37,534 nt of DNA from Gemmatimonadales bacterium (GTDB lineage Bacteria; Gemmatimonadota; Gemmatimonadetes; Gemmatimonadales; GWC2-71-9): NCBI GenBank assembly GCA_036377655.1, contig DASUXZ010000098.1:1-37534 (forward strand). Direction: 5' to 3'. Below the pieces are notes generated by a model that was not told the origin of the DNA, ran no database searches, and saw nothing but the letters and a program-made list of their open reading frames with translations. Of this stretch, positions 15 to 37,534 are shown piece by piece. How positions within the stretch are numbered: the stretch's first letter is position 1; the number at the start of each line of letters is the position of its first letter. Made by a program: the position numbers and the translations under genes.

Positions 15-932
15 ATGGCACAGAGAGAAGAGGCCGCGGAGTCGCCGCTCGTGCTCGTGGCCAACGACCAGGAGTGGTCGGCCCGCTCGCTCGAGAGCAT
101 CCTGGCGCCGAACGGCTACGCCGTCATCCGCGCCCATACCGGGCAGCAGGCCCTCGATCAGGCGCGGTCCCAGCGCCCCGACCTGATCATCCTGGATGCG
201 CAGATGCCGGACCTCCACGGGTTCGACGTCTGCCGCATGCTGCGGGACGATCCCCGGTTCAGCGCCACGACACCGATCATCATCACGACGAGCGGGCCGT
301 CCGGGCGGGCGCAGCGGCTCGAAGCCTATCGGGCGGGCGCCTGGGAGTTTCTCGGCCAGCCGGTCGATGGCGAGGCCCTGCTCCTCAAGCTCCGGACGTT
401 CGTCCAGTCCAAGCTCGAGGTGGACGCCCTCCGGGACGACACCCTGCTCGACACGGCCACCGGCTTCTACAACATGCGCGGCCTGGCCCGGCGCGCCCGC
501 GAGATCGGTTCCGAGGCCCGGCGCCGCCGGCAGCCCCTCTCCTGCGTGGTGTTCGCGGCCGACGAAGGGACGCTCGACAATGAGTCGGCGGGCGTGACCG
601 AGCGGATCGGCCGCATCTTCCGCGAGGCCGGGCGGTCGTCGGACGCCGTCGGCCGCCTGGCGCATGGGGAGTTCGCATTCATCGCTCCGGCGACCGGCCC
701 GCAGGGCGCGCACCGCCTCGCCGAGCGCCTCGGGGATATCGTCGATGCCGCAGCCGTGGCGCGGGAAGGGAACGGCCCGATCCGTCTTCGCGCCGGCTAC
801 TGCGCGGTCGCCGACTTCGGCACCTCCGACGTCGATGCCGTCGAGCTCCTGCTTCGCGCCACCTCCGCCCTCCGCCAGCTCCGCGAGTCGGGCGATGCCG
901 AACGGATCCGGGAGTTCGCGGCCCGCAACTGA
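15..932 (+). CDS. Response regulator: atypical CheY-like receiver fused to a degenerate GGDEF domain
   Basis: ATG at 15. Receiver motifs are LVLVANDQE, DLIILDAQMPDLHGFDV and PIIITTSG. The usual K-P is Q-P (EFLGQP) and the acidic DD pair is ND. The C-terminal GGDEF-like domain reads DTATGFYNMRGL ... RSSDAVGRLAHGEFAFI: the A-site is AHGEF (nt 660-674) and an RxxD motif sits 5 residues upstream (nt 633-644). A hairpin terminator follows. Confidence 0.8.
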   Translation: MAQREEAAESPLVLVANDQEWSARSLESILAPNGYAVIRAHTGQQALDQARSQRPDLIILDAQMPDLHGFDVCRMLRDDPRFSATTPIIITTSGPSGRAQRLEAYRAGAWEFLGQPVDGEALLLKLRTFVQSKLEVDALRDDTLLDTATGFYNMRGLARRAREIGSEARRRRQPLSCVVFAADEGTLDNESAGVTERIGRIFREAGRSSDAVGRLAHGEFAFIAPATGPQGAHRLAERLGDIVDAAAVAREGNGPIRLRAGYCAVADFGTSDVDAVELLLRATSALRQLRESGDAERIREFAARN

Positions 933-6462: not shown

Positions 6463-6722
6463 CCCTACCAGCAGCCCGCTGCCGGACATACCTTTAGCCC
6501 GCTCTCCGTGGTTCGACGGAGGCGCCGCAGGTCGCCGCCCATGATCGCGGCGGGGGCGGTCGGTGCGCCGGGAACGGCCGCGCCGGCCAGCCACCCGCTT
6601 CGAGTGGGACGGCGGATGCGGCCGCAATCAACCCGCCGGCACGCCGGCGCTCGACGGTCTCCTCGCCCTGGGCGGGGCAGGCGCGCGGGCGCACGGCGCC
6701 GCCGGCCGCACCCGAGTCCTTC

Positions 6723-11260: not shown

Positions 11261-11929
11261 CTACCAGCTCTCCCGCGCGCTCCCGAGGCTGAACCGCACG
11301 CCACCGGTCACCGTGTGCACGGCGCCGCTGATGAGGCGGCCCTCGCCGAGGACCGTGCCGCCCTCCTGCGTGAAGCGATATCCGGGGACGGTCTGCAGCT
11401 GGTAGTGCCCGAACACGCTCACGCCGCCGACCCGGAACTGGAGGCCGCCCATGAACGCGCCGAATCCGCTGCTCCCGATATCCTGCGCCACGGCCGATGA
11501 CCCGCCGTCGAGCGGATCCGGCGAGACGACATGGATGATGCCGCCGCCGACGCCGAAGTAGGGCTGCATGTGGCCGCGCACCGGAAAGACGAGAAGGCCG
11601 AAGGTGTAGCGACGGATGTCGCTGAACGCGACGTTCTGCGGGCCACCGCCGGCGGTGTAGTCGATGTAGCTCGAGGTCTGCCCGTCGTCGAAGGCCTCTT
11701 CGACGGCGAGGTAGAGCGCGCCCTTCTTGGCCTTGATGAGCGCATGACCGCCCGCCATCGGAATCGCGCCGCGGCTCTGCGTCGGCGTCCGGAAGACCAT
11801 CATGCCGGCCTGGCCGCCGAGGTACCAGCGGTAGTCGTCACTCTGCACCACCTCCTGCGCGCGAACATCCTGGGCGCCCAGCGCCAGGGCGAACGCGATC
11901 ACCGGGATGCTGCGGCTGAGCAGGCTCAT
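11261..11929 (-). CDS. Outer-membrane beta-barrel protein (small OmpA-N/OmpW-like porin family)
   Basis: Signal peptide MSLLSRSIPVIAFALALGAQDVRAQE. The sequence shows an alternating hydrophobic/Gly-rich strand pattern (YLGGQAGMMVF, GFGAFMGGLQFRVG, VSVFGHYQLQTV) and an aromatic C-terminus ...SARESW. Confidence 0.7.
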   Translation of the reverse strand: MSLLSRSIPVIAFALALGAQDVRAQEVVQSDDYRWYLGGQAGMMVFRTPTQSRGAIPMAGGHALIKAKKGALYLAVEEAFDDGQTSSYIDYTAGGGPQNVAFSDIRRYTFGLLVFPVRGHMQPYFGVGGGIIHVVSPDPLDGGSSAVAQDIGSSGFGAFMGGLQFRVGGVSVFGHYQLQTVPGYRFTQEGGTVLGEGRLISGAVHTVTGGVRFSLGSARESW

Positions 11930-12130
11930 CGGACCATCTCCTGAATGCGGCTGGGGGCCCGGCCGCGCAGCGGATTGCGCGGGGCCCGTGGAAAAACGCG
12001 AGGCGCCCGTCGGGGCACCGCCGCGGGAGGCGCCGGGATCCGATGGCGCTTCCTAAGGCATTGTTTTTCAACGAGATAGCTGGCTGGTCGATGCCGGAGC
12101 ACTGTCCGGTGGCCGGCCGTCGCGGAAGGG

Positions 12131-12161
12131 AAAGTGCAAAGAGGGGGCCACCCCGGCCCCC
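12131..12161 (-). terminator. Possible terminator after kbl
   Basis: The minus strand after the TGA reads GGGGGCC-ggggt-GGCCCCC followed by TCTTTGCACTTT. The stem is 7 bp of GC and the T-run is interrupted. Confidence 0.4.
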
Positions 12162-12166
12162 CCGTG

Positions 12167-13384
12167 TCAGATGAGGCCGAGGCGGGTTCCGACCTTGCGG
12201 AAGGCGGCGAGCGCCTCGTCCAGGTCCTCGCGGGAATGCGCGGCCGAAATCTGGCAGCGCACGCGCGCCTGTCCCTGGGGGACGACCGGGAATCCGAAGC
12301 CCGTCACGAAGACCCCTTCGTCGAGCAGCAGCTGGCTCATGCGGATCGCGTCGGACGTCTCGCCGAGAATCACCGGGATGATCGGGGTCTCGCCCGGGAG
12401 GGGCCGGAACCCGAGGGCGAGGAGGCCGTCGCGGAAATACGACGCGTTCTCGGCGAGGACACGAACGCGCCCCGGATGCGCCTCGAGGAACTCGATGCTC
12501 GCGAGCGCGCTCGCCGCCACCGTCGGCGGAAGGGCGTTCGAGAAGAGCTGCGGCCGGGCGCGCTGCGTGAGGTAATCGCAGACCGCTTCGGACGCGGCGA
12601 CGAATCCGCCCGCCGCGCCGCCGAGCGCCTTGCCGAGGGTGGAGGTGATGATGTCGATCTCGCCGACCAGGCCGAAATGCTCCGCCGTGCCCCGCCCGTG
12701 GGCGCCGAGGACGCCGGTGGCGTGCGAGTCGTCCACCACGAGGACGGCATCGTGGCGACGGCAGATCTCGAGGAGCTCCGGGAGCTTCGCGATCGCACCT
12801 TCCATCGAGAACACGCCGTCGGTGATGACCATCCGCGTCCGCCGGTCTCGCGCGGCGGTGAGGAGCTCGACGAGATGGTCGAGGTCGGCATGGCGGAAGA
12901 CCGCGGTCTGGCACTTCGTGATCGCCTTGGCGAGCCGGATGCCGTCGATGATCGAGGCGTGATTCAACTGGTCGCTGATCACGATGTCCTCCTCGCCGAG
13001 CAGGGTTCCCGGCGTCGCCTCGTTGGCATTCCAGCAGCTCACGAAGCTGAGGCTCGCCTCGGTCCCGACGAGGCGCGCGCAGGCCGCCTCGAGGTCGCGA
13101 TGCACGTCGAACGTCCCGCAGATGAATCGCACCGACGCGGTCCCCGCGCCGTAACGCGCGAGCGCCTCCCGGCCCGCCGCGACGACCGCCGGCTCGTTGC
13201 TGAGGCCGAGGTAGTTGTTCGATGAGAGGATGATGACCTCACCGCGGCCTTCCATCCTGACGCGCGCCGACTGCGGTCCCTGCAGGTAGTTCAGGTGCTT
13301 GTAGACGCCTTCGGCGCGGAAGCGCTCGAGCTCGGCGGCGATCCGCCGGTCGAGCGAGCTCGGATGGTGCGACGTCGGGGCCAT
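12167..13384 (-). CDS. kbl: 2-amino-3-ketobutyrate CoA ligase (glycine C-acetyltransferase)
   Basis: 405 aa. Motifs: ILSSNNYLGLSNEP, FICGTFDVHRDLE, VVDDSHATGVLGAHGRGTAEHFG, and IITSTLGKALGG with the PLP lysine. AAGGGA lies 9 nt upstream of the ATG at 13384. Confidence 0.9.
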   Translation of the reverse strand: MAPTSHHPSSLDRRIAAELERFRAEGVYKHLNYLQGPQSARVRMEGRGEVIILSSNNYLGLSNEPAVVAAGREALARYGAGTASVRFICGTFDVHRDLEAACARLVGTEASLSFVSCWNANEATPGTLLGEEDIVISDQLNHASIIDGIRLAKAITKCQTAVFRHADLDHLVELLTAARDRRTRMVITDGVFSMEGAIAKLPELLEICRRHDAVLVVDDSHATGVLGAHGRGTAEHFGLVGEIDIITSTLGKALGGAAGGFVAASEAVCDYLTQRARPQLFSNALPPTVAASALASIEFLEAHPGRVRVLAENASYFRDGLLALGFRPLPGETPIIPVILGETSDAIRMSQLLLDEGVFVTGFGFPVVPQGQARVRCQISAAHSREDLDEALAAFRKVGTRLGLI

Positions 13385-17721: not shown

Positions 17722-20670
17722 TCAGGCCGGCACGGGCCGGGTCGCGGGCTCCACCCGCACCGCGCTCACCTTGAACTCGGCGATCTTGGCGTACGGGTCG
17801 AGGCGGGGATTCGTGAGGAGGTTCGCGGCCGCCTCGCGGAAATGGAAGGGGATGAAGATCTGGCCGGGCGCCTGGCGGTCCGAGATGCGCGCGCCGATGA
17901 GGATCGACGCGCGGCGGCTCGTCACCCGCATCGTGTCGCCGTCCCCGATGCCGAGGCGGATGGCGTCCGCGGGACTGATCTCCGCGACCGGCACCGGCTC
18001 GCGGGAGTCGAGGCCCTCGGAGCGGCGCGTCATCGTGCCGGTGTGCCAGTGGTACATCTGCCGGCCGGTGTTCATGATGAACGGGAACTCGTCGTCCGGC
18101 AGCTCGGCGGGCGGGAGGTACTCGACGGCGACGAACTTCGCCTTCCCGTCCGGCGTCGGGAAGCGCTCGGCGAAGAGATACGGCGTGCCGCGATGCCCCC
18201 GCTCGGGCACGGGATACTGCAGGCCCGCGCCGCGGAGGGCGTCGTAGGTGACGCCCCGCCACGACGGCGTGACCGTCGTGATCTCCGCCATCACCTCTTC
18301 CGCATCGCGCCACGGCGTCGGGAGGCCCAGGCGGTTGGAGAGGTCGATGATGATGTCGAGGTCGCGCCGGGCGTCGCCCGGCAGGGGAACCGCCGGCTCG
18401 GTGAGCTGGATGCGGCGCTCCGTATTCACGTACGTCCCGCGCTTCTCGGCGAACGACGAGCCCGGAAGCACCACGTCCGCCCATCGTGCGGTCTCGGTGA
18501 GGAAGAGGTCCTGGACCGCCAGGAACTCGAGCCCGCGCACCCACGCCTCGGCGTGCGAGATGTCGGGGTCGGAGATCACCGGGTTCTCGCCCATGATGTA
18601 GAGGCCCCGGACCCCGCTCTCCGCGGACGTCATCTCCGTGACCATGAGGCCCGGCTTGAGCGAGAGCCGCTCCTCCGGCACGCCCCAGGCGCGCGCATAC
18701 TCCGCGCGGTTGGCGGGATCGGCGACCGGCCGGTAGTCGGTGTAGGCGAAGGGAATGGCGCCGACGTCGCTCGCGCCCTGCACGTTGTTCTGGCCGCGGA
18801 TCGGCATCATCTGTGCGCCCCACCGCCCGATCATGCCGCACGCGAACAGCAGGTTGAGGAGGCTCGCGACGATGTCGGTGCCCGTCGCGTGCTGGGTGAG
18901 GCCCATCGCCCAGAGGGTCGAGGTGCGCGGGCCGCGCGCGTACATCTCCGCCGCGGCGCGGATCGTCACCGCCGGGATGCCGGTGATGCGGGAGCCGACC
19001 TCGAGCGTGTACGGCTCGACCGCCTTCTTCACCACCTCGAAGCCGTGCATCCGCTTCCCGATGAACGTCCGGTCCTCCAGCCCTTCCGCGATGATGTGGT
19101 GCAGCATCGCGTTGAAGAGGGCGACGTCGGTGCCGGGCAGCATCTGCAGGTGGATGTCGGCGAGCTCCGCGAGCTCGAGCCGCCGCGGGTCCGCGACGAT
19201 GAGGCGGGCCCCCCGGGCCACCGCGCGCTTGATGAGCGCGCCGAACACGGGGTGGGACTCGGTGGTGTTGGCCCCGGCGATGAAGATCACGTCGCACGCT
19301 TCCTCGATCTCGCGCATCGAGCCGCTCGCGGCGGCCGTGCTGAGCGCGCGGTTCATCGCCGACACCGAGGTGGAGTGGCAGAGGCGGGTGCAGTGATCGA
19401 GGTTGTTCGTGTTGATGGCGCCGCGCACCATCCGCATGAAGGCGTAGTTGTCCTCGTTGGTGCACTTGGCGGACGAGAGCGCCGCGATCGCGTCCGGGCC
19501 GTGGCGTCCGCGGATCCGGAGGAGCTCCTGCGCCGCGAGGCTCAGGGCCTCGTCCCACGTGGCTTCACGGAACGGCTCGTACCACTCCGCCGGCGTGGCG
19601 ACCCGGTCGCGCACGTCGTCGCTCCCGCGGCGGCCACGGCCGGTGAGCGGCGGCTTGCCCACCTGCCGCTCGGGCGGGCGGGGTTTCTTCTTGCGGCCGA
19701 TCTCCTCGATGAGGTGCCACGGCCCTTCGCGGTGCCGCGGCCATTCGCCGGTCCAGCGCCAGGTGCCGTTCGCGTCCCGTTCCCATCCGCGGCGGATGAG
19801 GGGCTTCGTGAGGCGGTCGCGGTGCTGGGGGAAGTCGTAGCCGAATCGTCCCTTCACGCAGGTGGAGCCCTGGTTCGGCGTGTTCTCCTCGATCCACGGC
19901 GAGGTGACGCGCATGATCCTGCCGTCGCGCGCGTGCAGGTCCACCTGGCAGCCCACGGCACAGTAGGGACAGACCGAGCGGACGACGCGCTCCGGGCTCG
20001 CGAGCTTGTCCGCCCCGAACCGCTCGCGCGGGATGAACTCGAAGATCGCGTTGGTGGGGCAGACGCGAACGCACTCGCCGCACCAGGTGCAGCCGGCGTG
20101 ATCGGGATCGCCGTCGCCACCGACGATGATCTGCGCATGGCTCCCGCGCTCGGCGACGTCGAGCACGCCCACCTGCTGGATGTCCTCGCAGGCCCGCACG
20201 CAGCGGGTGCAGAGGATGCAGAGGCTCATGTCGTGCCGGATCATCGTGTCGCCGGGGCGCTCGTCCCCGGTGCGGAGCGGGAGCGTGCGAGAGACGACGG
20301 GGCGGGGCATGACCCCGTACCGCACGACGTGCCGCTCGAACTCGTTGCGTGGCGCGGCGCGCCCGCCGTTGGCGAGGTGCTCCCCCGGGTACCGCTCGAG
20401 CAGCATGGACAGCACGCCCTGCCGGTTGGCGACCGCGGCCGGCGACTCGGTCTCCACCGTCATGCCGTCCACGGCCGCGGTGGCGCACGCCGGCACGAGC
20501 TTCCCCTGGCCTTCCACCGACACGAGGCAGAGGCGGCAGTTCCCGACGTTCGGCAGCTTCGGATACCAGCAGAGCGTGGGGACGTCCACGCCGGCCGTGC
20601 GGGCGACGTCGAGGATCGTCGCGCCCGGTTCGAAGGAATGAGTACGGCCGTCGAGCACGAGGGTCGGCAT
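17722..20670 (-). CDS. Formate dehydrogenase alpha-subunit-like molybdopterin oxidoreductase (FdhA/FdsA/YjgC type, Cys variant)
   Basis: I chose the ATG at 20670 (MPTLVLDGR). 2Fe-2S motif: CWYPKLPNVGNCRLCLV...LVPACAT. 4Fe-4S motifs: CILCTRCVRAC and CTWCGECVRVCP. Mo-bisPGD N-terminal cluster: CPYCAVGCQV. The active-site stretch RLCHSTSV has Cys where selenoproteins have Sec. A molydopterin_dinuc-binding C-terminus is present. Confidence 0.85.
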   Translation of the reverse strand: MPTLVLDGRTHSFEPGATILDVARTAGVDVPTLCWYPKLPNVGNCRLCLVSVEGQGKLVPACATAAVDGMTVETESPAAVANRQGVLSMLLERYPGEHLANGGRAAPRNEFERHVVRYGVMPRPVVSRTLPLRTGDERPGDTMIRHDMSLCILCTRCVRACEDIQQVGVLDVAERGSHAQIIVGGDGDPDHAGCTWCGECVRVCPTNAIFEFIPRERFGADKLASPERVVRSVCPYCAVGCQVDLHARDGRIMRVTSPWIEENTPNQGSTCVKGRFGYDFPQHRDRLTKPLIRRGWERDANGTWRWTGEWPRHREGPWHLIEEIGRKKKPRPPERQVGKPPLTGRGRRGSDDVRDRVATPAEWYEPFREATWDEALSLAAQELLRIRGRHGPDAIAALSSAKCTNEDNYAFMRMVRGAINTNNLDHCTRLCHSTSVSAMNRALSTAAASGSMREIEEACDVIFIAGANTTESHPVFGALIKRAVARGARLIVADPRRLELAELADIHLQMLPGTDVALFNAMLHHIIAEGLEDRTFIGKRMHGFEVVKKAVEPYTLEVGSRITGIPAVTIRAAAEMYARGPRTSTLWAMGLTQHATGTDIVASLLNLLFACGMIGRWGAQMMPIRGQNNVQGASDVGAIPFAYTDYRPVADPANRAEYARAWGVPEERLSLKPGLMVTEMTSAESGVRGLYIMGENPVISDPDISHAEAWVRGLEFLAVQDLFLTETARWADVVLPGSSFAEKRGTYVNTERRIQLTEPAVPLPGDARRDLDIIIDLSNRLGLPTPWRDAEEVMAEITTVTPSWRGVTYDALRGAGLQYPVPERGHRGTPYLFAERFPTPDGKAKFVAVEYLPPAELPDDEFPFIMNTGRQMYHWHTGTMTRRSEGLDSREPVPVAEISPADAIRLGIGDGDTMRVTSRRASILIGARISDRQAPGQIFIPFHFREAAANLLTNPRLDPYAKIAEFKVSAVRVEPATRPVPA

Positions 20671-20760
20671 GCGCAGTCCGCGTGGAAGGGGCTTCCACTC
20701 GATAGTAGGCGGCGGCGATGGAGGGAGCAAGAGCGCTGCGGCGCCCCGCGCAACCTGCGG

Positions 20761-29445: not shown

Positions 29446-30525
29446 GTGGATGCCGTGGTCGCACCGGCGCACCGGGGGCCTTCCGAGGCGCTCGCCGGCG
29501 GCCTCCGGCGGTGGCGAGGGGCGCATTACTGGTCGGACGCCGGGCGCACCGCCCTCGTGCTCGTGCGGCCGGTCGCCCCGGACCGGCCGGAGCGGTGGGG
29601 GCTGCACGCCCTCCTCGCCCTCCTCACGATCCTCTGCGCCCTTGGCGCCGGTGCCGCCCTCGCCGGCGACTGGTACCCCCCGCGCCCGCCGCGGCACCTC
29701 GGCGCGGTCGCGGGAACGATCGCGGCCGGGCTGAGCTTCTTTGCCGACGTGATCGCCGGGGGGTGGCGCGACATCCTCTCCGGCGCCTCGTTCGCCTTTC
29801 CGCTTCTCGGCATCCTGCTCATCCACGAGCTGGGCCATTACGTCGCGGCGCGCCGCTACGCCATCGACACCTCGCCGCCGTTCTTCCTCCCCGTCCCGCC
29901 GACCCTGTCGCCGATCGGCAGTCTCGGCGCGTTCCTGCGGCTCCGAACGCCGGTGCTCGACCGGCGACAGCTCCTCGACGTCGGGGCCGCCGGGCCGCTC
30001 GCCGGGTTCGTCGTCGCCATCGGCGTGCTCGTCTGGGGCTACTCGGTGTCGGAAGGCCTGTCGCTCGGGCAGGAAACGCCCGGGGAGTTCGTGACCTTCG
30101 CCGGCCGGCAGATCTATCTCGGCGACTCGATCCTCACCTGGGCGCTCCGCTCCTGGTTCTTCCCCGACGCCGCGGCTGTCGCCCTGAGCCTGCCTGCGTT
30201 TGCCGGCTGGACCGGGGCCTTCGTCACGGGGCTCAACCTGATGCCGTTGAGCCAGCTCGACGGCGGGCACGTCCTCTACGCGCTCCTCGGGCGGCGCCAG
30301 GCCGTCGTCGGCGGTCTCACGATGATCGGCCTCTTCGTGCTCGGATTCTTCTCGCCGAGCTGGTGGCTGTGGGGCCTCGTCGCACTCGTGGTCGGCGGCG
30401 GGCGGTGGACCCATCCCTCGGTGGTGACGCCCGGGCGCGCGGTGCCGCCGCGACGGCGGTGGATCGCCTGGGCGTGCATCGCGGTGTTCATCGTGACCTT
30501 CGTGCCCGCCCCGTTCCGGATCTAG
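29446..30525 (+). CDS. Site-2 protease family (M50) intramembrane zinc metalloprotease
   Basis: GTG start at 29446. HExxH is in a TM helix (LLIHELGHYVAARRY). The second motif is GLNLMPLSQLDGGHVLYA. There are multiple TM segments. Confidence 0.85.
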   Translation: MDAVVAPAHRGPSEALAGGLRRWRGAHYWSDAGRTALVLVRPVAPDRPERWGLHALLALLTILCALGAGAALAGDWYPPRPPRHLGAVAGTIAAGLSFFADVIAGGWRDILSGASFAFPLLGILLIHELGHYVAARRYAIDTSPPFFLPVPPTLSPIGSLGAFLRLRTPVLDRRQLLDVGAAGPLAGFVVAIGVLVWGYSVSEGLSLGQETPGEFVTFAGRQIYLGDSILTWALRSWFFPDAAAVALSLPAFAGWTGAFVTGLNLMPLSQLDGGHVLYALLGRRQAVVGGLTMIGLFVLGFFSPSWWLWGLVALVVGGGRWTHPSVVTPGRAVPPRRRWIAWACIAVFIVTFVPAPFRI

Positions 30526-30903: not shown

Positions 30904-31089
30904 ATGTCGGACGCCGATCCCGTCAGCAAGCTGCGCCACGACCTCTCCAACCCGCTCTCGGCCCTCCTGGCCGAGACGCAGCTGCTGCTCCTCAACGAGG
31001 CGGCGATCGATCCGGAAACCGTCGCGGGGCTGCGCGAGATCGAAGGGCTCGCGATCCGGATGCGCGCCCTCCTCCGGGACGGTCAGTAG
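30904..31089 (+). CDS. Stand-alone HisKA/DHp-like mini-protein (61 aa) with an H-box and no ATPase domain
   Basis: ATG at 30904 with GAGGAG at 30894-30899. Sequence: MSDADPVSKLRHDLSNPLSALLAETQLLLLNEAAIDPETVAGLREIEGLAIRMRALLRDGQ. RHDLSNPLSAL matches the histidine-kinase H-box (compare AHDLRSPLTSI in the kinase at 5302-6462). The length fits a two-helix hairpin. Confidence 0.55.
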   Translation: MSDADPVSKLRHDLSNPLSALLAETQLLLLNEAAIDPETVAGLREIEGLAIRMRALLRDGQ

Positions 31090-32864
31090 GCGGCGCGCCC
31101 GCGCGACTGCGCCACCGCGCCCGCGGCGAGATAGGCCGCCAGGAAGGCGAGGCTTCCGCCGCTCGCGACCGCCCGCCCGGTCCAGCCCAGCTCGCTCGTC
31201 GAGACGAATCCTTCGATCAGACCCGAGACCACGAGGCAGGTGACCGCCGCCCCGACCATGCGGATGGCGCGGCGCCCCGCGAGCACGAGCGCGTCGCTCC
31301 GCGTGAGCGGTCCCGGCGCGATGATCGCGGTCCCGAGGAGGAACCCGGCCGCACCGGCCACCCAGATCGCGAAGAGCTCGAGCGCGCCGTGGCCGAGGAC
31401 GAACTGCGAGAGGTACCCGAACAGCCCTGCATTGGTGAAATGGCCGGCCGTCGCGCCGAGCTGGAGCCCGTTGAAGGCGAGGAGCACGAGCGAGCCGATG
31501 CCGAGGAAGGCGCCGCCGGCAAAGCAGTAGAAGGCGACACGCACGTTGTTCGCGATGATGCCCGACGCCGCGAGCGGCCGGCCGCCCGCGTCGATCTCGA
31601 CGAAGCCCTCCCCGGCGGCGCTCCGCTCGACGCCGACTTCCGCGCGCTCGAGCAGCACGTCCGGCAGCACCTCGGCCGCCACTTCCGGCCGCTCGCGGAC
31701 CAGCCGATAGCCGACCGTCCCGGGAATCATGAACGCGAGGAAGGCGGCGAGCACGTACCGGCGCGCCGCGACGACGGCCCCGGGGCACTCGAACGCGAGC
31801 ACCCGGCCGACGGTGCCGAGCCGATGCCCGTCGCCGCGGTAGAGCGCGTTGTGCCCCGCCGCGACGAGCCGCTCCACCCGGCGGACGACGTCGGGCGCCG
31901 CGCGGTACGTCCGGAGCCGCGCGAGGTCCGCGGCGATCTCGCGATAGCGCGCGGCGAAGTCGGGAAGCTCCGCCGGCGCGAGCGACTCGAGGCCGCCCGC
32001 CGCCGCGCGCCGCACGAGCACCTCGAACTCGGCCCAGCGGTCGCGCTGGGCGGCCTCGAGCTGCTCGGCGAGCCCGCCGCGCGCGGCGCCGCGCGTCCCG
32101 AGCGCGCCGCGCCGGCGCTCGAGCTCCGCCGCATGGAGCGCGAGCAGCGACTCGGCCGGGTCCCCCGCGCCGACGTCCGCCGAAACGATCGCGGCGTCGA
32201 GGCGGGCGGCGAGGTTGCGCGCCAGGCGGTCGCGTGCGGCGGGGGGAAGGTCGCCGGCCCGCGCGGCGAAGCCGGAGAGCAGGCGGAACTCGTCTTCGTC
32301 GAGCAGGGGCGCCGCGAGCGCCGGCTCGCCGCCGCGCGGCCTCGCGAGGGCCGGGCGCTCCTCCGGCCGGTCGCGCACGACGATCGTCCCGGCGGCGAGG
32401 TCGCCGATCCGCTTCCCGCGCGGATGAAGCGCCACGAGCACCGCGCCGGCGAGGTATGGCGGCGGCAGGAAATCGGCGATCCTGAGCAGATTGCGCACCG
32501 CCGCGGAGCCGAGGCTCACGGCGTGGCCCGTGTCCGCGACGACCCGGATGCCGAGGGCCCGCTTGCCCGGTGTCTGGCCGTTCCGCAGGCCTTCGAAGAA
32601 CGTGAAGTACCCGTACCACCCCGCGAAGGCGACCATCACGATCACGGCGCCTCCGAGGCGGCCGGGCGAGAACCCGGCCCGCGCCATGAGCGCGATCAGC
32701 AATCCGCCCGCGAGGCCGACGCCGCCCAGGATGACGAAGTCGAGGAGCGCCGCCGCCGCGCGCGAGCCGAGGCCGGCGATCTCGTAGTCGAGCACGACGT
32801 GCTCGGGCGTCTCGACCTCGAGGTGCTGGCGGAGGTCACGCGGGCCGGATTGCAGTGCGGGCAT
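31083..32864 (-). CDS. Fusion membrane protein: N-terminal RDD domain + C-terminal SpoIIM (DUF95)-like domain
   Basis: 593 aa. The RDD region reads YEIAGLGSRAAAALLDFVILG...FEGLRNGQTPGKRALGIRVV...VRNLLRIADFLP...GKRIGDLAAGTIVVRD. The middle is a helical Arg/Ala-rich domain containing FAARYREIAADLARLRTY. The SpoIIM-like region reads IIANNVRVAFYCFAGGAFLGIGSLVLLAFNGLQLGATAGHF...VLGHGALELFAIWVAGAAGFLLG. Confidence 0.75.
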   Translation of the reverse strand: MPALQSGPRDLRQHLEVETPEHVVLDYEIAGLGSRAAAALLDFVILGGVGLAGGLLIALMARAGFSPGRLGGAVIVMVAFAGWYGYFTFFEGLRNGQTPGKRALGIRVVADTGHAVSLGSAAVRNLLRIADFLPPPYLAGAVLVALHPRGKRIGDLAAGTIVVRDRPEERPALARPRGGEPALAAPLLDEDEFRLLSGFAARAGDLPPAARDRLARNLAARLDAAIVSADVGAGDPAESLLALHAAELERRRGALGTRGAARGGLAEQLEAAQRDRWAEFEVLVRRAAAGGLESLAPAELPDFAARYREIAADLARLRTYRAAPDVVRRVERLVAAGHNALYRGDGHRLGTVGRVLAFECPGAVVAARRYVLAAFLAFMIPGTVGYRLVRERPEVAAEVLPDVLLERAEVGVERSAAGEGFVEIDAGGRPLAASGIIANNVRVAFYCFAGGAFLGIGSLVLLAFNGLQLGATAGHFTNAGLFGYLSQFVLGHGALELFAIWVAGAAGFLLGTAIIAPGPLTRSDALVLAGRRAIRMVGAAVTCLVVSGLIEGFVSTSELGWTGRAVASGGSLAFLAAYLAAGAVAQSRGRAAY

Positions 32865-32877
32865 CCTGCGATACTAT
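32850..32877 (+). promoter_or_regulatory. Candidate sigma70-type promoter for the membrane protein-DUF4129-DUF4350-MoxR-DUF58 operon
   Basis: TTGCAG (32850-32855), 16 nt, TACTAT (32872-32877), about 55 nt upstream of the ATG at 32932. The -35 overlaps the first codons of the divergent gene. Confidence 0.45.
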
Positions 32878-32931
32878 GAGGGCGCGGCCGGAAGTCCAGT
32901 CGTCCGCGAAACGCTCACGGCGAGGAACTCG

Positions 32932-33780
32932 ATGACCGTCGCTCTCCGCCCGCTCTCGATGGGCGAGCTCCTGGATCACGCCTTCCGGCTCTTCCGGGAG
33001 CTCTTCGTTCCGCTCGTCCTGGTGCAGGTGATCTGTTCCTCCCTGCCGCTCCTCCTCAACCTGTTCGGCGCGGCGAGGGGAACCGGGCCAGGCGTCGGCG
33101 ACCTCGTCACCTACCTCATCGCATTCGTCCTCGGTTCCCTCGCGAGCGCCGCCACCGCGTACATCATCTCGGAGAACTACCTCGGGCGTCCGCTCGCCGC
33201 GGGGGACGCGCTGCGGCGGGCCGTTCCGAGGATCGGCGACGTGATGCTCCTCTCGCTCGGCGTCGGCTTCGTGGTGGTCGTCGCGGCCCTGCCGGCCATC
33301 CTCATGATCGGCGCCGGCTCGATGTTCACCGTCTACGCGGCGACGAGCGGCGAGGGAGGGCTCGCCGGCGGGGGGATCGGCATGGTCCTGCTCGGGCTCG
33401 CGCTGCTCGTCATTCCCTTCGCGGTCTTCTCGGGCCTGTCGGTCGCCACGCCTTCGCTCGTGCTCGAGCCGGCCAGCGCCGGCCGCGCGATGAGCCGGTC
33501 GTGGCAGCTCACCAAGGGCTTCCGGCTCCGGATCATCGGGCTCCTGTTCGTCGTCCTCGCGATCATCGTCGTCCCGATGTTCGCGCTCTCGATGATCGGG
33601 GCGATGTTCGGGAGCGGCGAGTCGCGTGCCGCCGAGGTCTTCTTCACGGCGGTGGTCGGGGTGGTGTCGCTCATCGTCACGCCACTCCTCTACTGCGTGC
33701 TCACGCTGCTCTACTACGACCTCCGCGTGCGCAAGGAAGGGTACGACCTCGAGGTGCTCGCGAACGAGCTGCCCGCCTGA
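32932..33780 (+). CDS. Polytopic membrane protein (UPF0259/DUF975-like family often found next to DUF4129 genes)
   Basis: 282 aa with 6-7 hydrophobic helices. The N-terminus is LSMGELLDHAFRLFRELF and the C-terminus is LLYYDLRVRKEGYDLEVLANEL. The family assignment is tentative. Confidence 0.6.
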   Translation: MTVALRPLSMGELLDHAFRLFRELFVPLVLVQVICSSLPLLLNLFGAARGTGPGVGDLVTYLIAFVLGSLASAATAYIISENYLGRPLAAGDALRRAVPRIGDVMLLSLGVGFVVVVAALPAILMIGAGSMFTVYAATSGEGGLAGGGIGMVLLGLALLVIPFAVFSGLSVATPSLVLEPASAGRAMSRSWQLTKGFRLRIIGLLFVVLAIIVVPMFALSMIGAMFGSGESRAAEVFFTAVVGVVSLIVTPLLYCVLTLLYYDLRVRKEGYDLEVLANELPA

Positions 33781-33784
33781 GCCG

Positions 33785-34396
33785 ATGCAGCAGCCCTCGC
33801 CGGACTCCCTCCGGAGCGTCCTCGACTCGGTCTTTTCGGGCGCGGCCTACGCGTGGCGGCCCGACAACGAGACGTCGGCGGCGCTCGTGCGGTACTGGCG
33901 GGCGCTGCTCGCCTGGCTCGCGGACATGAGCGAGGCGAACCCGCTGCTCTACCGGCTCCTCATCGCGGGCCTCGCCGCCGTGCTCGTGGCGATCCTGGCG
34001 CATGCCGCGTGGCTCCTCGTGCGCACGGTGCGCGGCGCGGCCGTCCCGCTGAACCCCGACCTCCCGGAGATCGTCCGCGAGCGGCGGACCGCCGGCTGGT
34101 ACTTCGACGCAGCCGACGCGGCCGCGTCCGGGGGGCGCTTCGCGGAGGCGCTCCAGCTCGGCTTCGTCGGCGTGGCGCTCACGCTCGAGGAGCGGGGGCT
34201 CCTCCGCTATCACCCCGGCAAGACGCCGGCGGAGTGCACCCGCGAGGCGCGCGTCGCCGGGGCGGACCGGGACCGGCTGCGGTCGCTCGTGCGGACGCTC
34301 TATGCGTGCGCGTTCGGCGGCCGGCGATGCACCGCGGAGGAGTACGCCGCGTGGCGATCGCTCGCCGCGGGGGAGTGGCATGCGGCCGCGCACTGA
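33785..34396 (+). CDS. DUF4129 domain membrane-anchored protein
   Basis: The ATG at 33785 lies 4 nt after the upstream stop. There is one TM helix (LLYRLLIAGLAAVLVAILAHAAWLLV). The DUF4129-like segment reads AASGGRFAEALQLGFVGVALTLEERGLLRYHPGKTPAECTREA...LVRTLYACAFGGRRCTAEEY. Confidence 0.7.
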   Translation: MQQPSPDSLRSVLDSVFSGAAYAWRPDNETSAALVRYWRALLAWLADMSEANPLLYRLLIAGLAAVLVAILAHAAWLLVRTVRGAAVPLNPDLPEIVRERRTAGWYFDAADAAASGGRFAEALQLGFVGVALTLEERGLLRYHPGKTPAECTREARVAGADRDRLRSLVRTLYACAFGGRRCTAEEYAAWRSLAAGEWHAAAH

Positions 34397-35567
34397 GCTC
34401 GCCGTCGCCCTCGCGGCGGTGCTCCTCCTCGGGGTCATCGTGATCGCGGCGGGCAGCCGCGGAACACGCCCGGAGGACCAGGATGTCCGCCGCTCGACGT
34501 ACCTCGCCGGGCCGTTCGGCGCGCGCGGCTACGCCGAGGCGGCGGGGCGCCTCGGGATCACGGTCGCGCGCCACCGCGCGCGCACGCGCGACCTCCCGAC
34601 GCGGCCGGACCTGGGCCCCGGGACGACCTGGGCCGTGCTCGACCCCGCGGCGCCGCTCTCGCCGCTCGATGCGCTCGAGCTCGCGCGCCTCGCCGGCTCG
34701 GGCACGTCGCTCATTCTCGCCGGACCCGGCGCGGAAGCGGCGATGGTCTGCTACGGCTACGCGAGGCGGGCGACCGGCCCCGCATCCGCGCGCTTCGGCG
34801 GGGAGGACCTCGCCGTACGCGCGGTGCTCTTCCGGCTTCCCGACTCGCTCGCGCACCGCCGGTCGCTCCTCGACGACGGATCGGACGTCGGCTGCGGGCC
34901 GATCGCGGCGCGGGCGGAGGTCCTGCTCGCGACATCGGAGGCGCCGGTCGCGATCCGGCTCACGCCCGACTCCGGCGGGACGGTGACGCTCGTGGCCGAT
35001 GGGCAGCTCTTCGCGAATCGCGCGCTCCGCGAGACCGCCGCCGGCGAGTTCGCGCTCGGCCTCGTCGCAGGTCGCACCGCCCGACTCGTGGTGGACGAGT
35101 ATCATCAGGGCTTCGGCCCGGGCGGGGGGATGCTGTCGGCCGTGCGGCGCTGGCTCGGCGACTCGCCGTGGGGATGGGCGGTGATCCACCTCTTCGCGGT
35201 GGCGGTGCTTGCGCTGCTCGTCGCCGCGGTGCGATTCGGCCCGCCCCGGCGCGTGATCGTCCGGCGGCGGCGGTCCCCGCTCGAGCACGTGCGCGCGCTC
35301 GCCAATGCGCTCGCGGCGGCGCGGGGGCACGACGAGGCGATCGCGCTCCTGGCCCGCGGGCTCCGCCGCCGGCTCGCCCGTCCCGGCGAGCAGCTCCGCG
35401 GGGACGTGCGGGTCTGGCTCGCTTCGCTCGCGCGCCGCGTCTCGACGCCCCGGGCCGCCGCGGCGGTCGCAACACTCCAGTCGCTGACTCGCGGGGGGGC
35501 CGACGCCGTCGGCGTCCGCCGCGCCGCCCTTGCCGTGGAGGAGCTGTGGCAGGAACTGAAACCGTAG
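34380..35567 (+). CDS. DUF4350-like protein (N-terminal TM, periplasmic/extracytoplasmic domain, second TM, C-terminal helical region)
   Basis: The internal ATG 34380 overlaps the upstream gene by 17 nt. Motifs: MRPRTELAVALAAVLLLGVIVIAAG, STYLAGPFGARGYAEAAGRLG, LILAGPG, VTLVADGQLFANRAL, VVDEYHQGFG, and second TM WGWAVIHLFAVAVLALLVAAV. Confidence 0.65.
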   Translation: MRPRTELAVALAAVLLLGVIVIAAGSRGTRPEDQDVRRSTYLAGPFGARGYAEAAGRLGITVARHRARTRDLPTRPDLGPGTTWAVLDPAAPLSPLDALELARLAGSGTSLILAGPGAEAAMVCYGYARRATGPASARFGGEDLAVRAVLFRLPDSLAHRRSLLDDGSDVGCGPIAARAEVLLATSEAPVAIRLTPDSGGTVTLVADGQLFANRALRETAAGEFALGLVAGRTARLVVDEYHQGFGPGGGMLSAVRRWLGDSPWGWAVIHLFAVAVLALLVAAVRFGPPRRVIVRRRRSPLEHVRALANALAAARGHDEAIALLARGLRRRLARPGEQLRGDVRVWLASLARRVSTPRAAAAVATLQSLTRGGADAVGVRRAALAVEELWQELKP

Positions 35568-36529
35568 CGCCGATCGACGCCGCCCGCGCCGCCGAGCAGG
35601 GCGAGGCCATCCTGTCGCAGCTCGGACACGTGGTGCTCGGGCAGCCGTCCGCGCTCCGGGAGGCGCTCGCGGCGCTCGTCGCCCGGGGGCACGTCCTTCT
35701 CGAAGGCGTGCCCGGCACCGCCAAGACCCTGCTCGTGCGGACGCTCGCGCAGGTGTTCGGGCTTTCGTTCCGGCGGATCCAGTTCACGCCCGACCTCATG
35801 CCGTCGGACGTCACCGGCATCAACCTGCTCGGTGGCGGCGGCAGCTTCACCTTCCGCCCGGGTCCGATCTTCGGCGACCTCGTCCTCGCCGACGAGATCA
35901 ACCGCGCGCCCGCGAAGACCCAGGCCGCGCTGCTCGAGGCGATGCAGGAGCGGAGCGTCACGGTGGACGGCACGTCGCATCCGCTTCCACCCGCCTTCAC
36001 CGTGTTCGCGACGCAGAACCCGATCGAGTTCGAGGGGACCTATCCGCTCCCGGAAGCGGAGCTCGACCGGTTCCTCGTGAAGGTGAGCCTCGGGTACCCG
36101 GCGGCGGAGGTCGAGCAGGGGATTCTCGCCCGGGTCCTCGAGGGTTTCGAGGCGGACGATCCGGCGAGCTTCGGCGTCACGCAGGTGCTCGACGGACCGG
36201 GACTCGCGGCGCTCAGGCGCGCCGCGCGCGCGGTGCGGGTGGAGCCGAGCCTCACCGGCTACATCACGGCGATCGTGCGTGCCACCCGCGACGCGCCGGC
36301 CCTCACCCTCGGCGCCTCGCCGCGCGCCTCGGTCGCGCTCCTCAAGGTGAGCCAGGCGACGGCGCTGCTCGACGGCCGGACCTTCGTGACGCCGGACGAC
36401 GTGAAGGCGCTCGCGCCCGCCGTGCTGCGCCATCGTGTGGCCGTCGCGCCCGAGCTCGAGCTCGAGGGCGTCGCCGCGGACGCGGCGCTCGCCTCGATCA
36501 TCGAGCGGATCGAGGTGCCGCGCACGTGA
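35546..36529 (+). CDS. MoxR-family AAA+ ATPase
   Basis: Motifs: Walker A HVLLEGVPGTAKT, RIQFTPDLMPSDVTG, Walker B LVLADEINRAPAKTQAALLEAMQE, VFATQNPIEFEGTYPLPEAELDRF, GASPRAS. The proposed GTG start at 35546 follows GGAGGAG but with short spacing, and it overlaps the upstream gene end. The start is uncertain. Confidence 0.85.
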   Translation: MAGTETVAPIDAARAAEQGEAILSQLGHVVLGQPSALREALAALVARGHVLLEGVPGTAKTLLVRTLAQVFGLSFRRIQFTPDLMPSDVTGINLLGGGGSFTFRPGPIFGDLVLADEINRAPAKTQAALLEAMQERSVTVDGTSHPLPPAFTVFATQNPIEFEGTYPLPEAELDRFLVKVSLGYPAAEVEQGILARVLEGFEADDPASFGVTQVLDGPGLAALRRAARAVRVEPSLTGYITAIVRATRDAPALTLGASPRASVALLKVSQATALLDGRTFVTPDDVKALAPAVLRHRVAVAPELELEGVAADAALASIIERIEVPRT

Positions 36530-37534
36530 TCCTGCCGACGCGCCGCTGGATCGCCGGCGCCGCGGCGGCCGCCGTCCTCGCTCCGCTGGCGGCCATCGCG
36601 CCCGACCTGCTCGGGCTGTACCTCGTCGCCGTGCCGCTGTGGGTGGCGCTCTTCCTGTTCGACGGGGGGCGCGCCGCCCGTCATCCGTTGCGGATGGAGC
36701 GGGAGCCGCCGCCGGCATTCTCGGTCGGCCGCACCCTCGCCGTGACGTATCGGTGGATCCTCGGCGGGGCCGCGCCGCAATTCATCCGCGTTCGCGAGCT
36801 GTTTCCCGACCCGCTCGGCGGCGCCGGCGTCCCCGAGCGCGTCATCCGCCTCATTCCCGGCGCGAACGAGGAGCGGCTGGACGTCACGCCGGTGCGGCGA
36901 GGCATCGGGACCGGCGGAAAGACGACGGTCCGGCGCCTCGGCCCGCTCGGCCTCGCCTGGCGGCAGGACACGCTGGACGCGCCGTGGGAGGCGACGGTCT
37001 TTCCGCGGCTCGCCGGCGCCTCGCTGCGCGCCCTGCCCACGCGCGCCGCGCGGCAGCGGGAAGCGGGCCTCCGGGCCATGCGCCGTCCGGGAGAGGGCCG
37101 GCTCTTCGAGAGCCTCCGCGAATGGATTCCCGGCGAGGACACGCGGATCATCGACTGGAAGGCGACCGCGCGGCGGGGCAAGACGATCGCGCGCGTCTAC
37201 GAAGACGAGCGCCGGCAGCAGGTGCTTCTCGTCGTGGACGCCGGGCGGCTGCTCACCTCGGAATCGGACGGCGTTCCGCGGCTCGAGGCGGCCATCGAGG
37301 CCGCGCTCCAGCTCGCGCACGCGGCGGTGCAGCAGGACGACGACGTCGGGATCCTCGTCTTCGCCGATACGATCCAGGCGTACGCGCCGCCGGCGCGGGG
37401 GCGGCGCGGGCTCCGGGCGGTTCTTGCGGCGCTCGCCGCGGTGGAAGGCAAGCTCGTCGAGAGCGACTATCCGTCGGCCTTCCGCTACATCGCCGCGCGG
37501 AGCAGGAAGCGGGCGCTCACGGTGCTCTTCACCG
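36526..37534 (+). CDS. DUF58 (vWA-like) protein, 3'-truncated by the window end
   Basis: This ORF is not in the track because it runs off the window. My translation from the GTG at 36526 (GTGA overlap with the MoxR stop) reads VILPTRRWIAGAAAAAVLAPLAAIAPDLLGLYLVAVPLWVALFLF (2 TM). It continues ...GEGRLFESLREWIPGEDTRIIDWKATARRGKTIARVYEDERRQQVLLVVDAGR...VGILVFAD, which is the DUF58 signature. Confidence 0.8.
   Translation, partial: MILPTRRWIAGAAAAAVLAPLAAIAPDLLGLYLVAVPLWVALFLFDGGRAARHPLRMEREPPPAFSVGRTLAVTYRWILGGAAPQFIRVRELFPDPLGGAGVPERVIRLIPGANEERLDVTPVRRGIGTGGKTTVRRLGPLGLAWRQDTLDAPWEATVFPRLAGASLRALPTRAARQREAGLRAMRRPGEGRLFESLREWIPGEDTRIIDWKATARRGKTIARVYEDERRQQVLLVVDAGRLLTSESDGVPRLEAAIEAALQLAHAAVQQDDDVGILVFADTIQAYAPPARGRRGLRAVLAALAAVEGKLVESDYPSAFRYIAARSRKRALTVLFT

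Follow-up and report, generated by a model that had tools for sequence, protein, structure and literature searches.

The stretch analysed here (the window) is the 37,534-nucleotide (nt) contig DASUXZ010000098.1 of a Gemmatimonadales bacterium, with a base composition of about 72% G+C. Its last part carries six genes: one whose single product joins an RDD module to a SpoIIM (DUF95) module, and, divergent from it, a five-gene operon encoding a polytopic membrane protein, a DUF4129 protein, a DUF4350 protein, a MoxR-type AAA+ ATPase and a DUF58/vWA-like protein (Table 1). The six open reading frames (ORFs) are real: the G+C fraction at third codon positions is 0.92-0.96 in all six and that at second positions is much lower (0.45-0.59), which is the coding signature at 72% G+C. 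An earlier note on this DNA, made from the sequence alone, had described the same arrangement; its ORF coordinates, the 4-nt gap, the 17-, 22- and 4-nt overlaps and the 67-bp divergent spacer were all confirmed, and the profile hidden Markov models (HMMs) of Pfam recover the families it had named (RDD, SpoIIM, DUF4129, DUF4350, AAA_3 and DUF58). NCBIfam has no family model for five of the six proteins. The topologies it had proposed agree with a hydropathy scan, which gives six transmembrane (TM) segments for the first operon protein, one for the DUF4129 protein, two for the DUF4350 protein, none for MoxR and an N-terminal one for the DUF58 protein (a second, weaker one is read from the sequence). 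The DUF58 gene is cut off by the end of the window, with 336 amino acids (aa) present as against about 439 aa (439 aa in the homologue at related locus L001).

Table 1. Coordinates of the six-gene locus and of the modules of the fusion protein
Feature	Position	Strand	Details
RDD–DUF8413–SpoIIM fusion gene	31083-32864	-	593 aa
RDD module	aa 1-175, nt 32864-32340	-	2 clear TM helices
RDD-type cytoplasmic tail helices	aa ~190-257	-	conserved in RDD-type proteins
Junction, low confidence in model	aa 256-262, ~nt 32097-32079	-	
DUF8413 helical domain (PF28475)	aa ~259-342	-	
SpoIIM module	aa ~346-593	-	6 predicted TM helices
Divergent control region	32865-32931	.	67 bp
Polytopic membrane protein, UPF0259/DUF7847/GPDPase_memb type	32932-33780	+	282 aa, ~6 TM
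DUF4129 single-pass protein	33785-34396	+	203 aa; begins 4 nt past preceding stop
DUF4350 protein	34380-35567	+	395 aa; 17-nt overlap with DUF4129 gene
MoxR-type AAA+ ATPase	35546-36529	+	327 aa; GTG start; 22-nt overlap with DUF4350 gene
DUF58/vWA-like protein	36526-37534	+	GTG start; 4-nt overlap with moxR stop

Pfam assigns aa 30-159 of the fusion protein to RDD (E-value 1.6e-20) and aa 375-555 to SpoIIM (2.6e-29, covering 161 of the 163 profile positions). A third family, PF28475 (DUF8413), is precomputed for homologues and for the identical database protein, which goes by the name 'stage II sporulation protein M'. The AlphaFold2 model of the fusion has a mean pLDDT (predicted local distance difference test) of 83.7 and a pTM (predicted template-modelling score) of 0.72, and the region between the two named modules (aa 190-342) is helical in it. 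The earlier note had taken this region for a helical Arg/Ala-rich linker. Helical it is, but it is not a mere linker, since it consists of the C-terminal helices of the RDD part followed by DUF8413, the cytoplasmic domain with which SpoIIM-type proteins begin. In the RDD part itself, two clear TM helices are accompanied by a small region of cytoplasmic beta-sheet, and the eponymous Arg and Asp residues lie at the inner membrane face. Across 18 fusions with 26-54% identity to the query, the invariant residues are R35, D42, G96, G100, K101, R124, D131, R152, D155 and T160 on the RDD side, and W277, N439, N440, G451, N465, G470, H492, E496, E551, G552 and S555 on the DUF8413/SpoIIM side. From the model we infer that the six SpoIIM helices carry an invariant polar set, with N439, N440 and N465 mid-helix and H492/E496 and E551/S555 at helix ends placed at the outer face. 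A profile search of the PDB gave no match better than E = 0.33 and hence no solved relative by sequence.

The fusion is genuine and old. The 120 best clusters at 90% identity (58-100% identity to the query) are all but one full length, with RDD, PF28475 and SpoIIM in about 576-629 aa. At the 50% level, where every cluster representative from some 15 billion proteins was searched, RDD and SpoIIM share a single chain of 489-647 aa in 86 of the 150 best representatives, and the whole architecture is kept in the alignment of the 18 fusions down to 26-30% identity. Because it is full length across these cluster sets and retained in distant homologues, the fusion is neither a frameshift nor an assembly artefact, an outcome that the earlier note had named as fatal to its proposal.

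Related loci (L numbers) were collected in one scan of GTDB species genomes with an RDD-domain peptide pattern, which yielded 80 loci; this set is biased to RDD-containing, fusion-like relatives and speaks to linkage among relatives, not to an unbiased ratio of fused to split forms. Among the loci fetched, true fusions occur only in Gemmatimonadota (at all of their loci), in a Planctomycetaceae metagenome-assembled genome (MAG; L066) and in Parachlamydia (L068), where Pfam finds RDD and SpoIIM in one 565-aa ORF. Elsewhere the same two proteins are encoded separately and yet remain together. In Verrucomicrobiota, Myxococcota and Pseudomonadota they are adjacent and co-directional, and in Chloroflexota, Gemmataceae and mycobacteria (Rv3695/Rv3694c in the last) they are divergent. 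Adjacent pairs, in which a stop codon is followed by a new start 2-6 nt on, are those of L062, L069, L072, L075, L078 and L081, and divergent ones those of L077, L082, L083 and L084. The break point of the split pair is the junction of the fusion: the separate RDD protein ends with the helices that match aa ~190-257 and the SpoIIM-type protein opens with DUF8413 (L077), and PF28475 and PF01944 occur together in all of 120 Chloroflexota-type homologues. Among the loci examined, RDD and SpoIIM-type proteins are obligate partners, always paired whether fused, adjacent or divergent. Since the separate genes are always paired, even where no MoxR operon lies nearby (L083), the fusion has the Rosetta-stone value that had been claimed for it and indicates that the two halves work together.

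Near-full-length tblastn matches in Verrucomicrobiota, Myxococcales, Pseudomonadota and Gimesia were candidate fusions as well; inspection of their ORFs shows two genes. Programmed read-through at the in-frame stops was also considered and rejected, as each stop has its own ATG or GTG after it and the stops differ (TGA, TAA, TAG), so that ordinary coupled genes are likelier. The two genes share a reading frame in five of the six adjacent-pair genomes (L062:10901, L069:10784, L072:1698, L075:10658 and L078:10724), where the chance expectation is one in three and shared ancestry is possible. Loss of the single stop in these five pairs would recreate the fusion.

The neighbourhood of the pair was mapped with HMMs for eight modules, built from the window proteins and iterated on the six-frame ORFs of the loci. 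Of the loci, 32 have 6.5 kb or more of sequence to either side of the RDD/SpoIIM gene(s); all five operon genes are present in 27 of these, at least three in 30, and none in two (L040 and L077). The pair and the operon occur in three relative orders: divergent in Gemmatimonadales, as in the window; tail-to-tail in Longimicrobiales, 'Palauibacter', many Gemmatimonadaceae, a proteobacterial MAG (L078) and the split-pair locus L084; and co-directional in a Verrucomicrobiota genome (L062), Parachlamydia (L068), a Myxococcales MAG (L069) and beta- and gammaproteobacterial MAGs (L072 and L075). In Parachlamydia all six are joined in a single operon with overlaps of 4 nt; the fusion gene is the last of them and overlaps the stop codon of DUF58. 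In the Planctomycetaceae MAG the operon lies about 4 kb from the fusion gene. L084, a 1.2-Mb contig found by a search with the Chloroflexota-type homologue, has a divergent RDD / DUF8413-SpoIIM pair tail-to-tail with DUF58–MoxR–DUF4350–DUF4129–DUF7847. The five-gene operon travels with the RDD–SpoIIM pair across at least seven phyla, and because this linkage survives three rearrangements it is strong evidence for one functional unit. The view of the six genes as one conserved unit is thereby upheld by the neighbourhood comparison that the earlier note had called for.

A further expectation, that BatA-like vWA or transglutaminase genes might follow beyond the window end, is not supported: in the relatives DUF58 is the last gene of the operon, and what comes after it varies. 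No Bat, TPR or transglutaminase gene was found after DUF58 in the HMM map of the 80 loci and in extra Pfam scans, and the genes there are unrelated in L001 and L084. Two candidates for additional members were dropped. An Iron_permease gene downstream of DUF58 is confined to close relatives of L001, and an ABC-2 transporter, suggested as a partner by the GldG-like character of DUF4350, is found upstream in Parachlamydia only. There, a tandem ATPase and two permeases (L068:28-3964) lie directly upstream of the six-gene operon in the same direction; neither the remaining 79 scanned loci nor L001 and L002 have anything that corresponds to the permeases. In the gammaproteobacterial MAG L075 a 519-aa ORF with a putative start (11625-13184) consists of a segment like the first membrane protein and a C-terminal DUF4129, and is possibly a second fusion within the system. 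Some Longimicrobiaceae (L036/L051, L040 and L042) have a fusion gene without a MoxR operon within 10 kb, and one MAG of this family (L036 and L051) has two fusion copies on different contigs. These operon-less fusions are possible paralogues that are independent of MoxR.

The first protein of the operon falls just short of the Pfam GPDPase_memb model (29.4 bits against a cut-off of 29.6), and its L001 homologue matches UPF0259, GPDPase_memb and DUF7847. Conservation over 72 sequences picks out an N-terminal motif, GE.lD..f..yR, and a C-terminal one, YYDLRvr.EG.DLE, and the gene for the homologue adjoins that for DUF4129 in related loci. The DUF4129 protein (Pfam 2.3e-9) has its TM helix at aa 54-72; in 67 homologues the flanks contain 98 Lys and Arg residues on the N-terminal side and 171 on the C-terminal side, and the C-terminal DUF4129 helical domain is predicted to be cytoplasmic. 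The DUF4350 protein (Pfam 1.3e-9) is laid out as a TM anchor (aa 7-25), an extracytoplasmic alpha/beta domain (aa ~45-245), a second TM helix (aa 266-284) and an Arg-rich cytoplasmic helical tail (aa 285-395). The Lys and Arg counts on either side of its second TM helix are 74 and 221, and the topology predicted by positive-inside counts over the family alignments has the middle domain of about 240 aa outside and the tail in the cytoplasm. Its AlphaFold2 model, built with database homologues, has a pLDDT of 81.4. In Foldseek searches the outer domain retrieves the non-catalytic trimerisation domain of GH5/GH42/GH164 glycosidases, the N-terminal (GIFT) domain of IFT52 (5fmr) and an oligosaccharyltransferase subunit (6s7t_G), with probabilities of 0.9-1.0 and E-values of about 5e-4 to 9e-2. 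The fold is GIFT / beta-galactosidase-trimerisation-like, in agreement with the HHpred assignment in PMC5898192, and the modelled structure suggests a scaffold for oligomerisation or binding, not an enzyme. Two of its cysteines, C124 and C172 (34749-34751 and 34893-34895), are invariant in 38 Gemmatimonadota homologues and would be compatible with a disulfide and an extracytoplasmic location. The PDB has no sequence relatives of the DUF4350 and DUF58 proteins.

The MoxR protein is soluble and belongs to MoxR proper: AAA_3 matches at 1.8e-59 (199.8 bits, 131 of 131 profile positions) and AAA_lid_2 at 4.6e-21, Walker A (GVPGTAKT, aa 54-61) and Walker B (LADEINR, aa 114-120) are at least 90% conserved in 59 cluster-linked homologues, and a DUF58 gene is adjacent. 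Its best solved relative is 2r44, an uncharacterised MoxR structure (2.1e-69). The DUF58 protein (Pfam 7.3e-27) is borderline for VWA_2 (26.9 bits against a cut-off of 27). It begins with a weaker hydrophobic stretch (aa 8-26) and a clear one (aa 27-45); Lys and Arg residues number 35 after the second TM segment as against 2, and the vWA-like domain is predicted to be cytoplasmic. At the position of the DxSxS motif of the metal-ion-dependent adhesion site (MIDAS) it has D238-A-G240-R241, followed by Leu (37237-37248), and D-x-G-R is found in 96% of 56 cluster-linked homologues. The vWA partner therefore has no intact DxSxS motif, the part of the MIDAS that the assessment covers (the residues that come later in the MIDAS fall close to the end of the window or past it), and as the proposed adaptor it probably makes no use of a canonical metal site for ligand binding.

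In its gene content the locus resembles the mycobacterial MoxR2 locus (Rv3689, Rv3691–Rv3695), which has the same families in one neighbourhood, as compared by an annotation table in which DUF4129 is not listed. That table (PMC8191103) gives as neighbours in M. chelonae (BB28_RS01875–01900 and RS24340) DUF58, MoxR, 'stage II sporulation protein M', RDD, DUF4350 and a membrane protein, with the M. tuberculosis orthologues Rv3693, Rv3692, Rv3694c, Rv3695, Rv3691 and Rv3689, respectively; it matches the statement in the earlier note on separate genes in Actinobacteria. As in the mycobacterial cluster, all the families lie in one neighbourhood here, with RDD and SpoIIM-type proteins encoded as a pair; the mycobacterial proteins are separate and divergently encoded, whereas they are a single polypeptide here. 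Full-text literature searches found no published function for Rv3689–Rv3695, and no paper on the full set as a system, on the RDD–SpoIIM fusion or on DUF8413.

Makarova, Galperin and Koonin (2015; PMC5898192) described archaeal loci combining arCOG01314 (DUF4350), vWA and MoxR (COG0714), which they predicted to form a secretion or membrane-remodelling complex. They also noted SpoIIM (COG1300) homologues, common in non-sporeformers, beside vWA and COG0714 genes 'in several bacteria'. The present locus likewise has a membrane-anchored DUF4350 protein (flavodoxin/GldG-like ectodomain), a vWA protein and a COG0714 ATPase. However, the archaeal loci carry secreted vWA–Ig and Ig-like/S-layer proteins (arCOG02884 and others), none of which was found in the window or related loci, and their vWA protein is secreted, whereas that encoded here is of the DUF58 type, predicted to be cytoplasmic with N-terminal TM segment(s). 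Their paper has no mention of RDD (0 occurrences), DUF4129, DUF8413 or the fusion. The operons of MoxR proper (Bacteroides Bat, Rhizobium RL3499-3502 and the TgpA type) likewise place DUF58 after an AAA_3 MoxR gene, which it overlaps by 4 nt here. In Bat- and TgpA-type operons BatA/BatB, TPR or transglutaminase genes follow DUF58, whereas the partners here are DUF4350, DUF4129, the UPF0259/DUF7847-like protein and RDD–SpoIIM. DUF4129 also occurs as the C-terminal domain of TgpA-type transglutaminases, a link on which a literature check found no paper.

The statement in the earlier note that these families have no assigned function outside sporulation was incomplete, in view of DUF95 in circular bacteriocins, the RDD protein SppI, an RDD antiporter and the neighbourhoods of Makarova and colleagues. 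Circular-bacteriocin clusters have SpoIIM/DUF95 as their hallmark membrane protein; it is universal there and has a secretion/immunity phenotype. The host phylum is not known to sporulate. The sole genetically defined role of SpoIIM is the recruitment of SpoIIP and SpoIID (PMC5898192), and a knockout of the DUF95 gene lcyD retains the mature form of the circular bacteriocin within cells (PMC6131525). B. subtilis SpoIIM (in DMP engulfment), As-48C and LcyD belong to the same family (PF01944) as the module here, and are polytopic proteins that act on extracytoplasmic or membrane-active polypeptide partners; in contrast to them, the SpoIIM domain here has an N-terminal DUF8413 and is fused to RDD. 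Among the ORFs scanned in the window, which is 37.5 kb of the genome, there is no SpoIID or SpoIIP domain. Nor does the locus look like a circular-bacteriocin cluster, as its neighbours are the MoxR operon and a HisKA-like ORF and no bacteriocin precursor, immunity protein or dedicated ABC exporter lies nearby, although no search aimed at small precursor ORFs was made. On the RDD side, SppI (YteJ) of B. subtilis binds and inhibits the membrane protease SppA (PMC7568657), and an RDD protein of H. andaensis has been reported as a Na+(Li+,K+)/H+ antiporter dependent on conserved R/D residues (PMC5996927). Both belong to PF06271, and the conserved Arg and Asp residues correspond to R35, D42, R124, D131, R152 and D155 here. 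SppI is a precedent for RDD as an obligate membrane partner and regulator; the partner here is of SpoIIM type and not SppA, and in contrast to both precedents no antiporter or protease gene is linked. The component annotations, the mycobacterial cluster (as visible in annotation) and the DUF4350/SpoIIM–vWA–MoxR neighbourhoods were already known.

Our leading but tentative reading is that the products of the six genes make up a single conserved inner-membrane system belonging to the MoxR–vWA class, whose platform positions, exports or quality-controls a membrane or extracytoplasmic polypeptide client in envelope homeostasis, in organisms ranging from Gemmatimonadota, Chlamydiota, Planctomycetota, Pseudomonadota and Chloroflexota to Mycobacterium tuberculosis. 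MoxR ATPases generally act via vWA adaptor proteins on specific clients (general knowledge; cf. PMC5898192). MoxR would form a cytoplasmic AAA+ ring, and the TM-anchored DUF58 protein would hold this ring at the membrane, its vWA-like domain with the degenerate MIDAS serving as adaptor as for other MoxR ATPases. The motor could then act on the cytoplasmic helical domains, namely DUF8413 with the tail of RDD, the domain of DUF4129 and the Arg-rich tail of the DUF4350 protein. Remodelling powered by ATP would assemble or switch a membrane platform made of RDD–SpoIIM, DUF4350, DUF4129 and the UPF0259/DUF7847-like protein. Its core would be the RDD–SpoIIM bundle of 8-9 TM helices, with the invariant polar cluster of N439/N440/N465 mid-membrane and H492/E496/E551/S555 at the outer face, and its periplasmic part the oligomerisation-type, GIFT-like DUF4350 domain. 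We infer this mechanism from context and topology, and favour a role in handling a polypeptide client because membrane-located polypeptides are the common theme of the precedents for SpoIIM, DUF95 and the RDD protein SppI. A proteomic hint comes from Rv3694c and Rv3695, which were both recovered with the divisome-associated protein Rv0954 (PMC8093794). Envelope assembly or remodelling, as the earlier note suggested, is likewise a conjecture.

Several observations weigh against this reading. The precedents diverge, comprising a scaffold, export or immunity, protease control and an antiporter. No fold could be assigned to the fusion, for which the best Foldseek match has an E-value of 0.8 and TM-scores do not exceed 0.17. 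The fusion or the pair lacks a nearby MoxR operon in L040, L077 and L083, so the pair can work, or at least persist, alone. The D-x-G-R sequence of the DUF58 MIDAS questions the adaptor analogy, as the canonical ligand-binding mode of vWA domains may not apply. A docking motif shared by the DUF4129 domain, the DUF4350 tail and the RDD-tail/DUF8413 halves was sought and rejected, hhalign on the family alignments giving a probability of at most 2%. In the double lysogen of M. chelonae, the MoxR cluster is 6-9 units down together with the rest of the BB28_RS01830-01900 block (short-chain dehydrogenase, glpF/glpK, PadR; PMC8191103), a drop that may be a regional effect, through deletion or silencing, and not a cluster-specific regulon.

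The alternatives differ in what they make of the same membrane bundle. It could be a cell-wall remodelling scaffold, in which the SpoIIM-like module recruits peptidoglycan hydrolases or synthases at growth or division sites and MoxR/DUF58 controls the assembly. Vanderlinde et al. reportedly found in 2011 that the MoxR–DUF58–vWA operon RL3499-3502 of Rhizobium leguminosarum is needed for morphology and envelope integrity, which would suit this idea, as would the recruiting role of SpoIIM itself and the placement in the model of the invariant H/E/E/S cluster at the outer end of the SpoIIM helices. Rv3694c and Rv3695 have moreover co-purified with the divisome-associated Rv0954, together with PbpA and LamA (PMC8093794), although that co-immunoprecipitation list is long and unvalidated for these two proteins. 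We nevertheless consider a scaffold unlikely, as peptidoglycan enzymes are not among the conserved neighbours at the 80 loci (mltG/YceG lies close by in L001 only) and Parachlamydia has the cluster. An ion or small-solute transporter, for example a cation/proton antiporter or a metal transporter that MoxR/vWA matures or gates, possibly by inserting or removing metal, appears more improbable. MoxR-class ATPases with vWA partners do take part in metal-cofactor insertion (NorQ/D, CoxD/E, chelatases), the intramembrane Asn pairs and the His/Glu/Glu cluster resemble an ion or metal site, and the H. andaensis antiporter is an RDD protein. The Foldseek matches of the fusion, to ZIP, MlaE and YetJ-type membrane proteins, are weak and all non-significant, however, and the DUF58 MIDAS is degenerate. 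A transporter would also have no obvious need for three further membrane proteins with large cytoplasmic and periplasmic domains, and SppI shows no salt or pH phenotype in B. subtilis (PMC7568657).

Export of specific surface proteins by a novel secretion system is what the archaeal prediction of Makarova and colleagues would imply here, and both the block in circular bacteriocin release upon DUF95 knockout and the GldG/GIFT-like DUF4350 fold agree with it. The bacterial cluster nevertheless has no conserved cargo, Ig-like or S-layer genes and no ABC transporter as a conserved neighbour, and its vWA protein is predicted to be cytoplasmic where the archaeal model has a secreted one; such a system is decidedly improbable. 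That the RDD–SpoIIM gene and the MoxR operon are two unconnected modules lying side by side is very unlikely and already disfavoured. The operon-less loci named above and the divergent transcription of the two units in the window would fit it, but mere adjacency would hardly outlast three rearrangements in at least seven phyla, nor would it account for the Parachlamydia operon in which the fusion gene overlaps the DUF58 stop. An anti-phage or conflict system is barely credible. MoxR–vWA modules do occur in such systems, and there is a weak bpMoxR match of 36 bits; AAA_3, however, scores 199.8 bits, no beta-propeller or effector gene is present, none of the six proteins has a PADLOC match, and the cluster sits in the core chromosome by rho and ruvX, with synteny stable across the phylum.

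A bolder version of the polypeptide-handling reading, which we regard as doubtful, would make RDD–SpoIIM the new catalytic or translocating core of an AAA+-powered inner-membrane machine. With its outer His/Glu/Glu and mid-membrane Asn residues, this core would export, insert or clear membrane-active polypeptides and be set by MoxR via the MIDAS-less vWA adaptor. If true, the part of SpoIIM in engulfment, that of DUF95 in releasing circular bacteriocins and in immunity to them, and the control of SppA by RDD would share a single molecular function, and three poorly understood families (SpoIIM/DUF95, RDD and DUF4350) would be explained at once. If the system is merely a housekeeping assembly factor, the result would still improve the annotation of thousands of proteins called 'stage II sporulation protein M' in non-sporulating bacteria. 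Few AAA+ systems of prokaryotes are as widespread as MoxR–vWA modules, and clients are known for few of these modules. The present cluster, with its six or seven genes, is a clearly bounded MoxR system found in many phyla as well as in M. tuberculosis. Its covalent fusion, defined split point and list of invariant residues offer experimental handles, indicating what to co-purify, what to mutate and on which side of the membrane the domains lie. It is a testable lead on conserved 'dark matter' and would be no surprise to specialists.

The two transcription units diverge from the 67-bp control region. On the minus strand, a -35-like TGGACT (32898-32893) is followed by a 16-nt spacer, a -10-like TAGTAT (32876-32871), 6 nt and the ATG of the fusion gene, which has no Shine-Dalgarno sequence. 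Upstream of the fusion gene, L001, L003, L005, L006 and L009 share the conserved arrangement TACAAT/TACTAT-CGCTGC-ATG. These elements form a putative sigma-70-like promoter, and the spacing suggests that the fusion mRNA is leaderless or nearly so; a consensus promoter scan called nothing in the control region at its threshold. On the plus strand, a Shine-Dalgarno-like GAGGA (32922-32926) lies 5 nt before the ATG of the membrane protein gene.

The rest of the window, from 1 to 27000, is ordinary chromosomal context. It includes genes for a response-regulator/GGDEF protein, a sigma-54 activator, a Wzz/GNVR tyrosine-kinase-type chain-length regulator, an aminotransferase, a Zn-dependent alcohol dehydrogenase, a PUA-methyltransferase, a formate-dehydrogenase-like molybdopterin oxidoreductase (17725-20760), a 632-aa NYN-domain protein (6498-8393), a CDF cation-efflux protein, an SdpI-like protein, RuvX and Rho. 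Scans of the window found no Rfam family and no tRNA. Between rho and the cluster lies a gene for an M50-family (site-2-protease-like) membrane metalloprotease with an HELGH motif (29446-30525, plus strand). It is not a conserved neighbour, as rho directly follows a small HisKA-like ORF at the corresponding position in L001. In the window this small ORF of about 61 aa (30904-31089, plus strand; listed from a GTG at 30787) consists solely of a HisKA/DHp-like helix pair with an H-box (KLRHDLSNPLSAL), and its Pfam HisKA score of 20.6 bits does not reach the cut-off. The small ORF and the RDD–SpoIIM gene are convergent, with a 7-nt overlap at the 3' end of the latter. A homologue of about 60 aa occupies the same place in more than 20 Gemmatimonadales loci, and this small protein may be a lineage-specific seventh partner or regulator.

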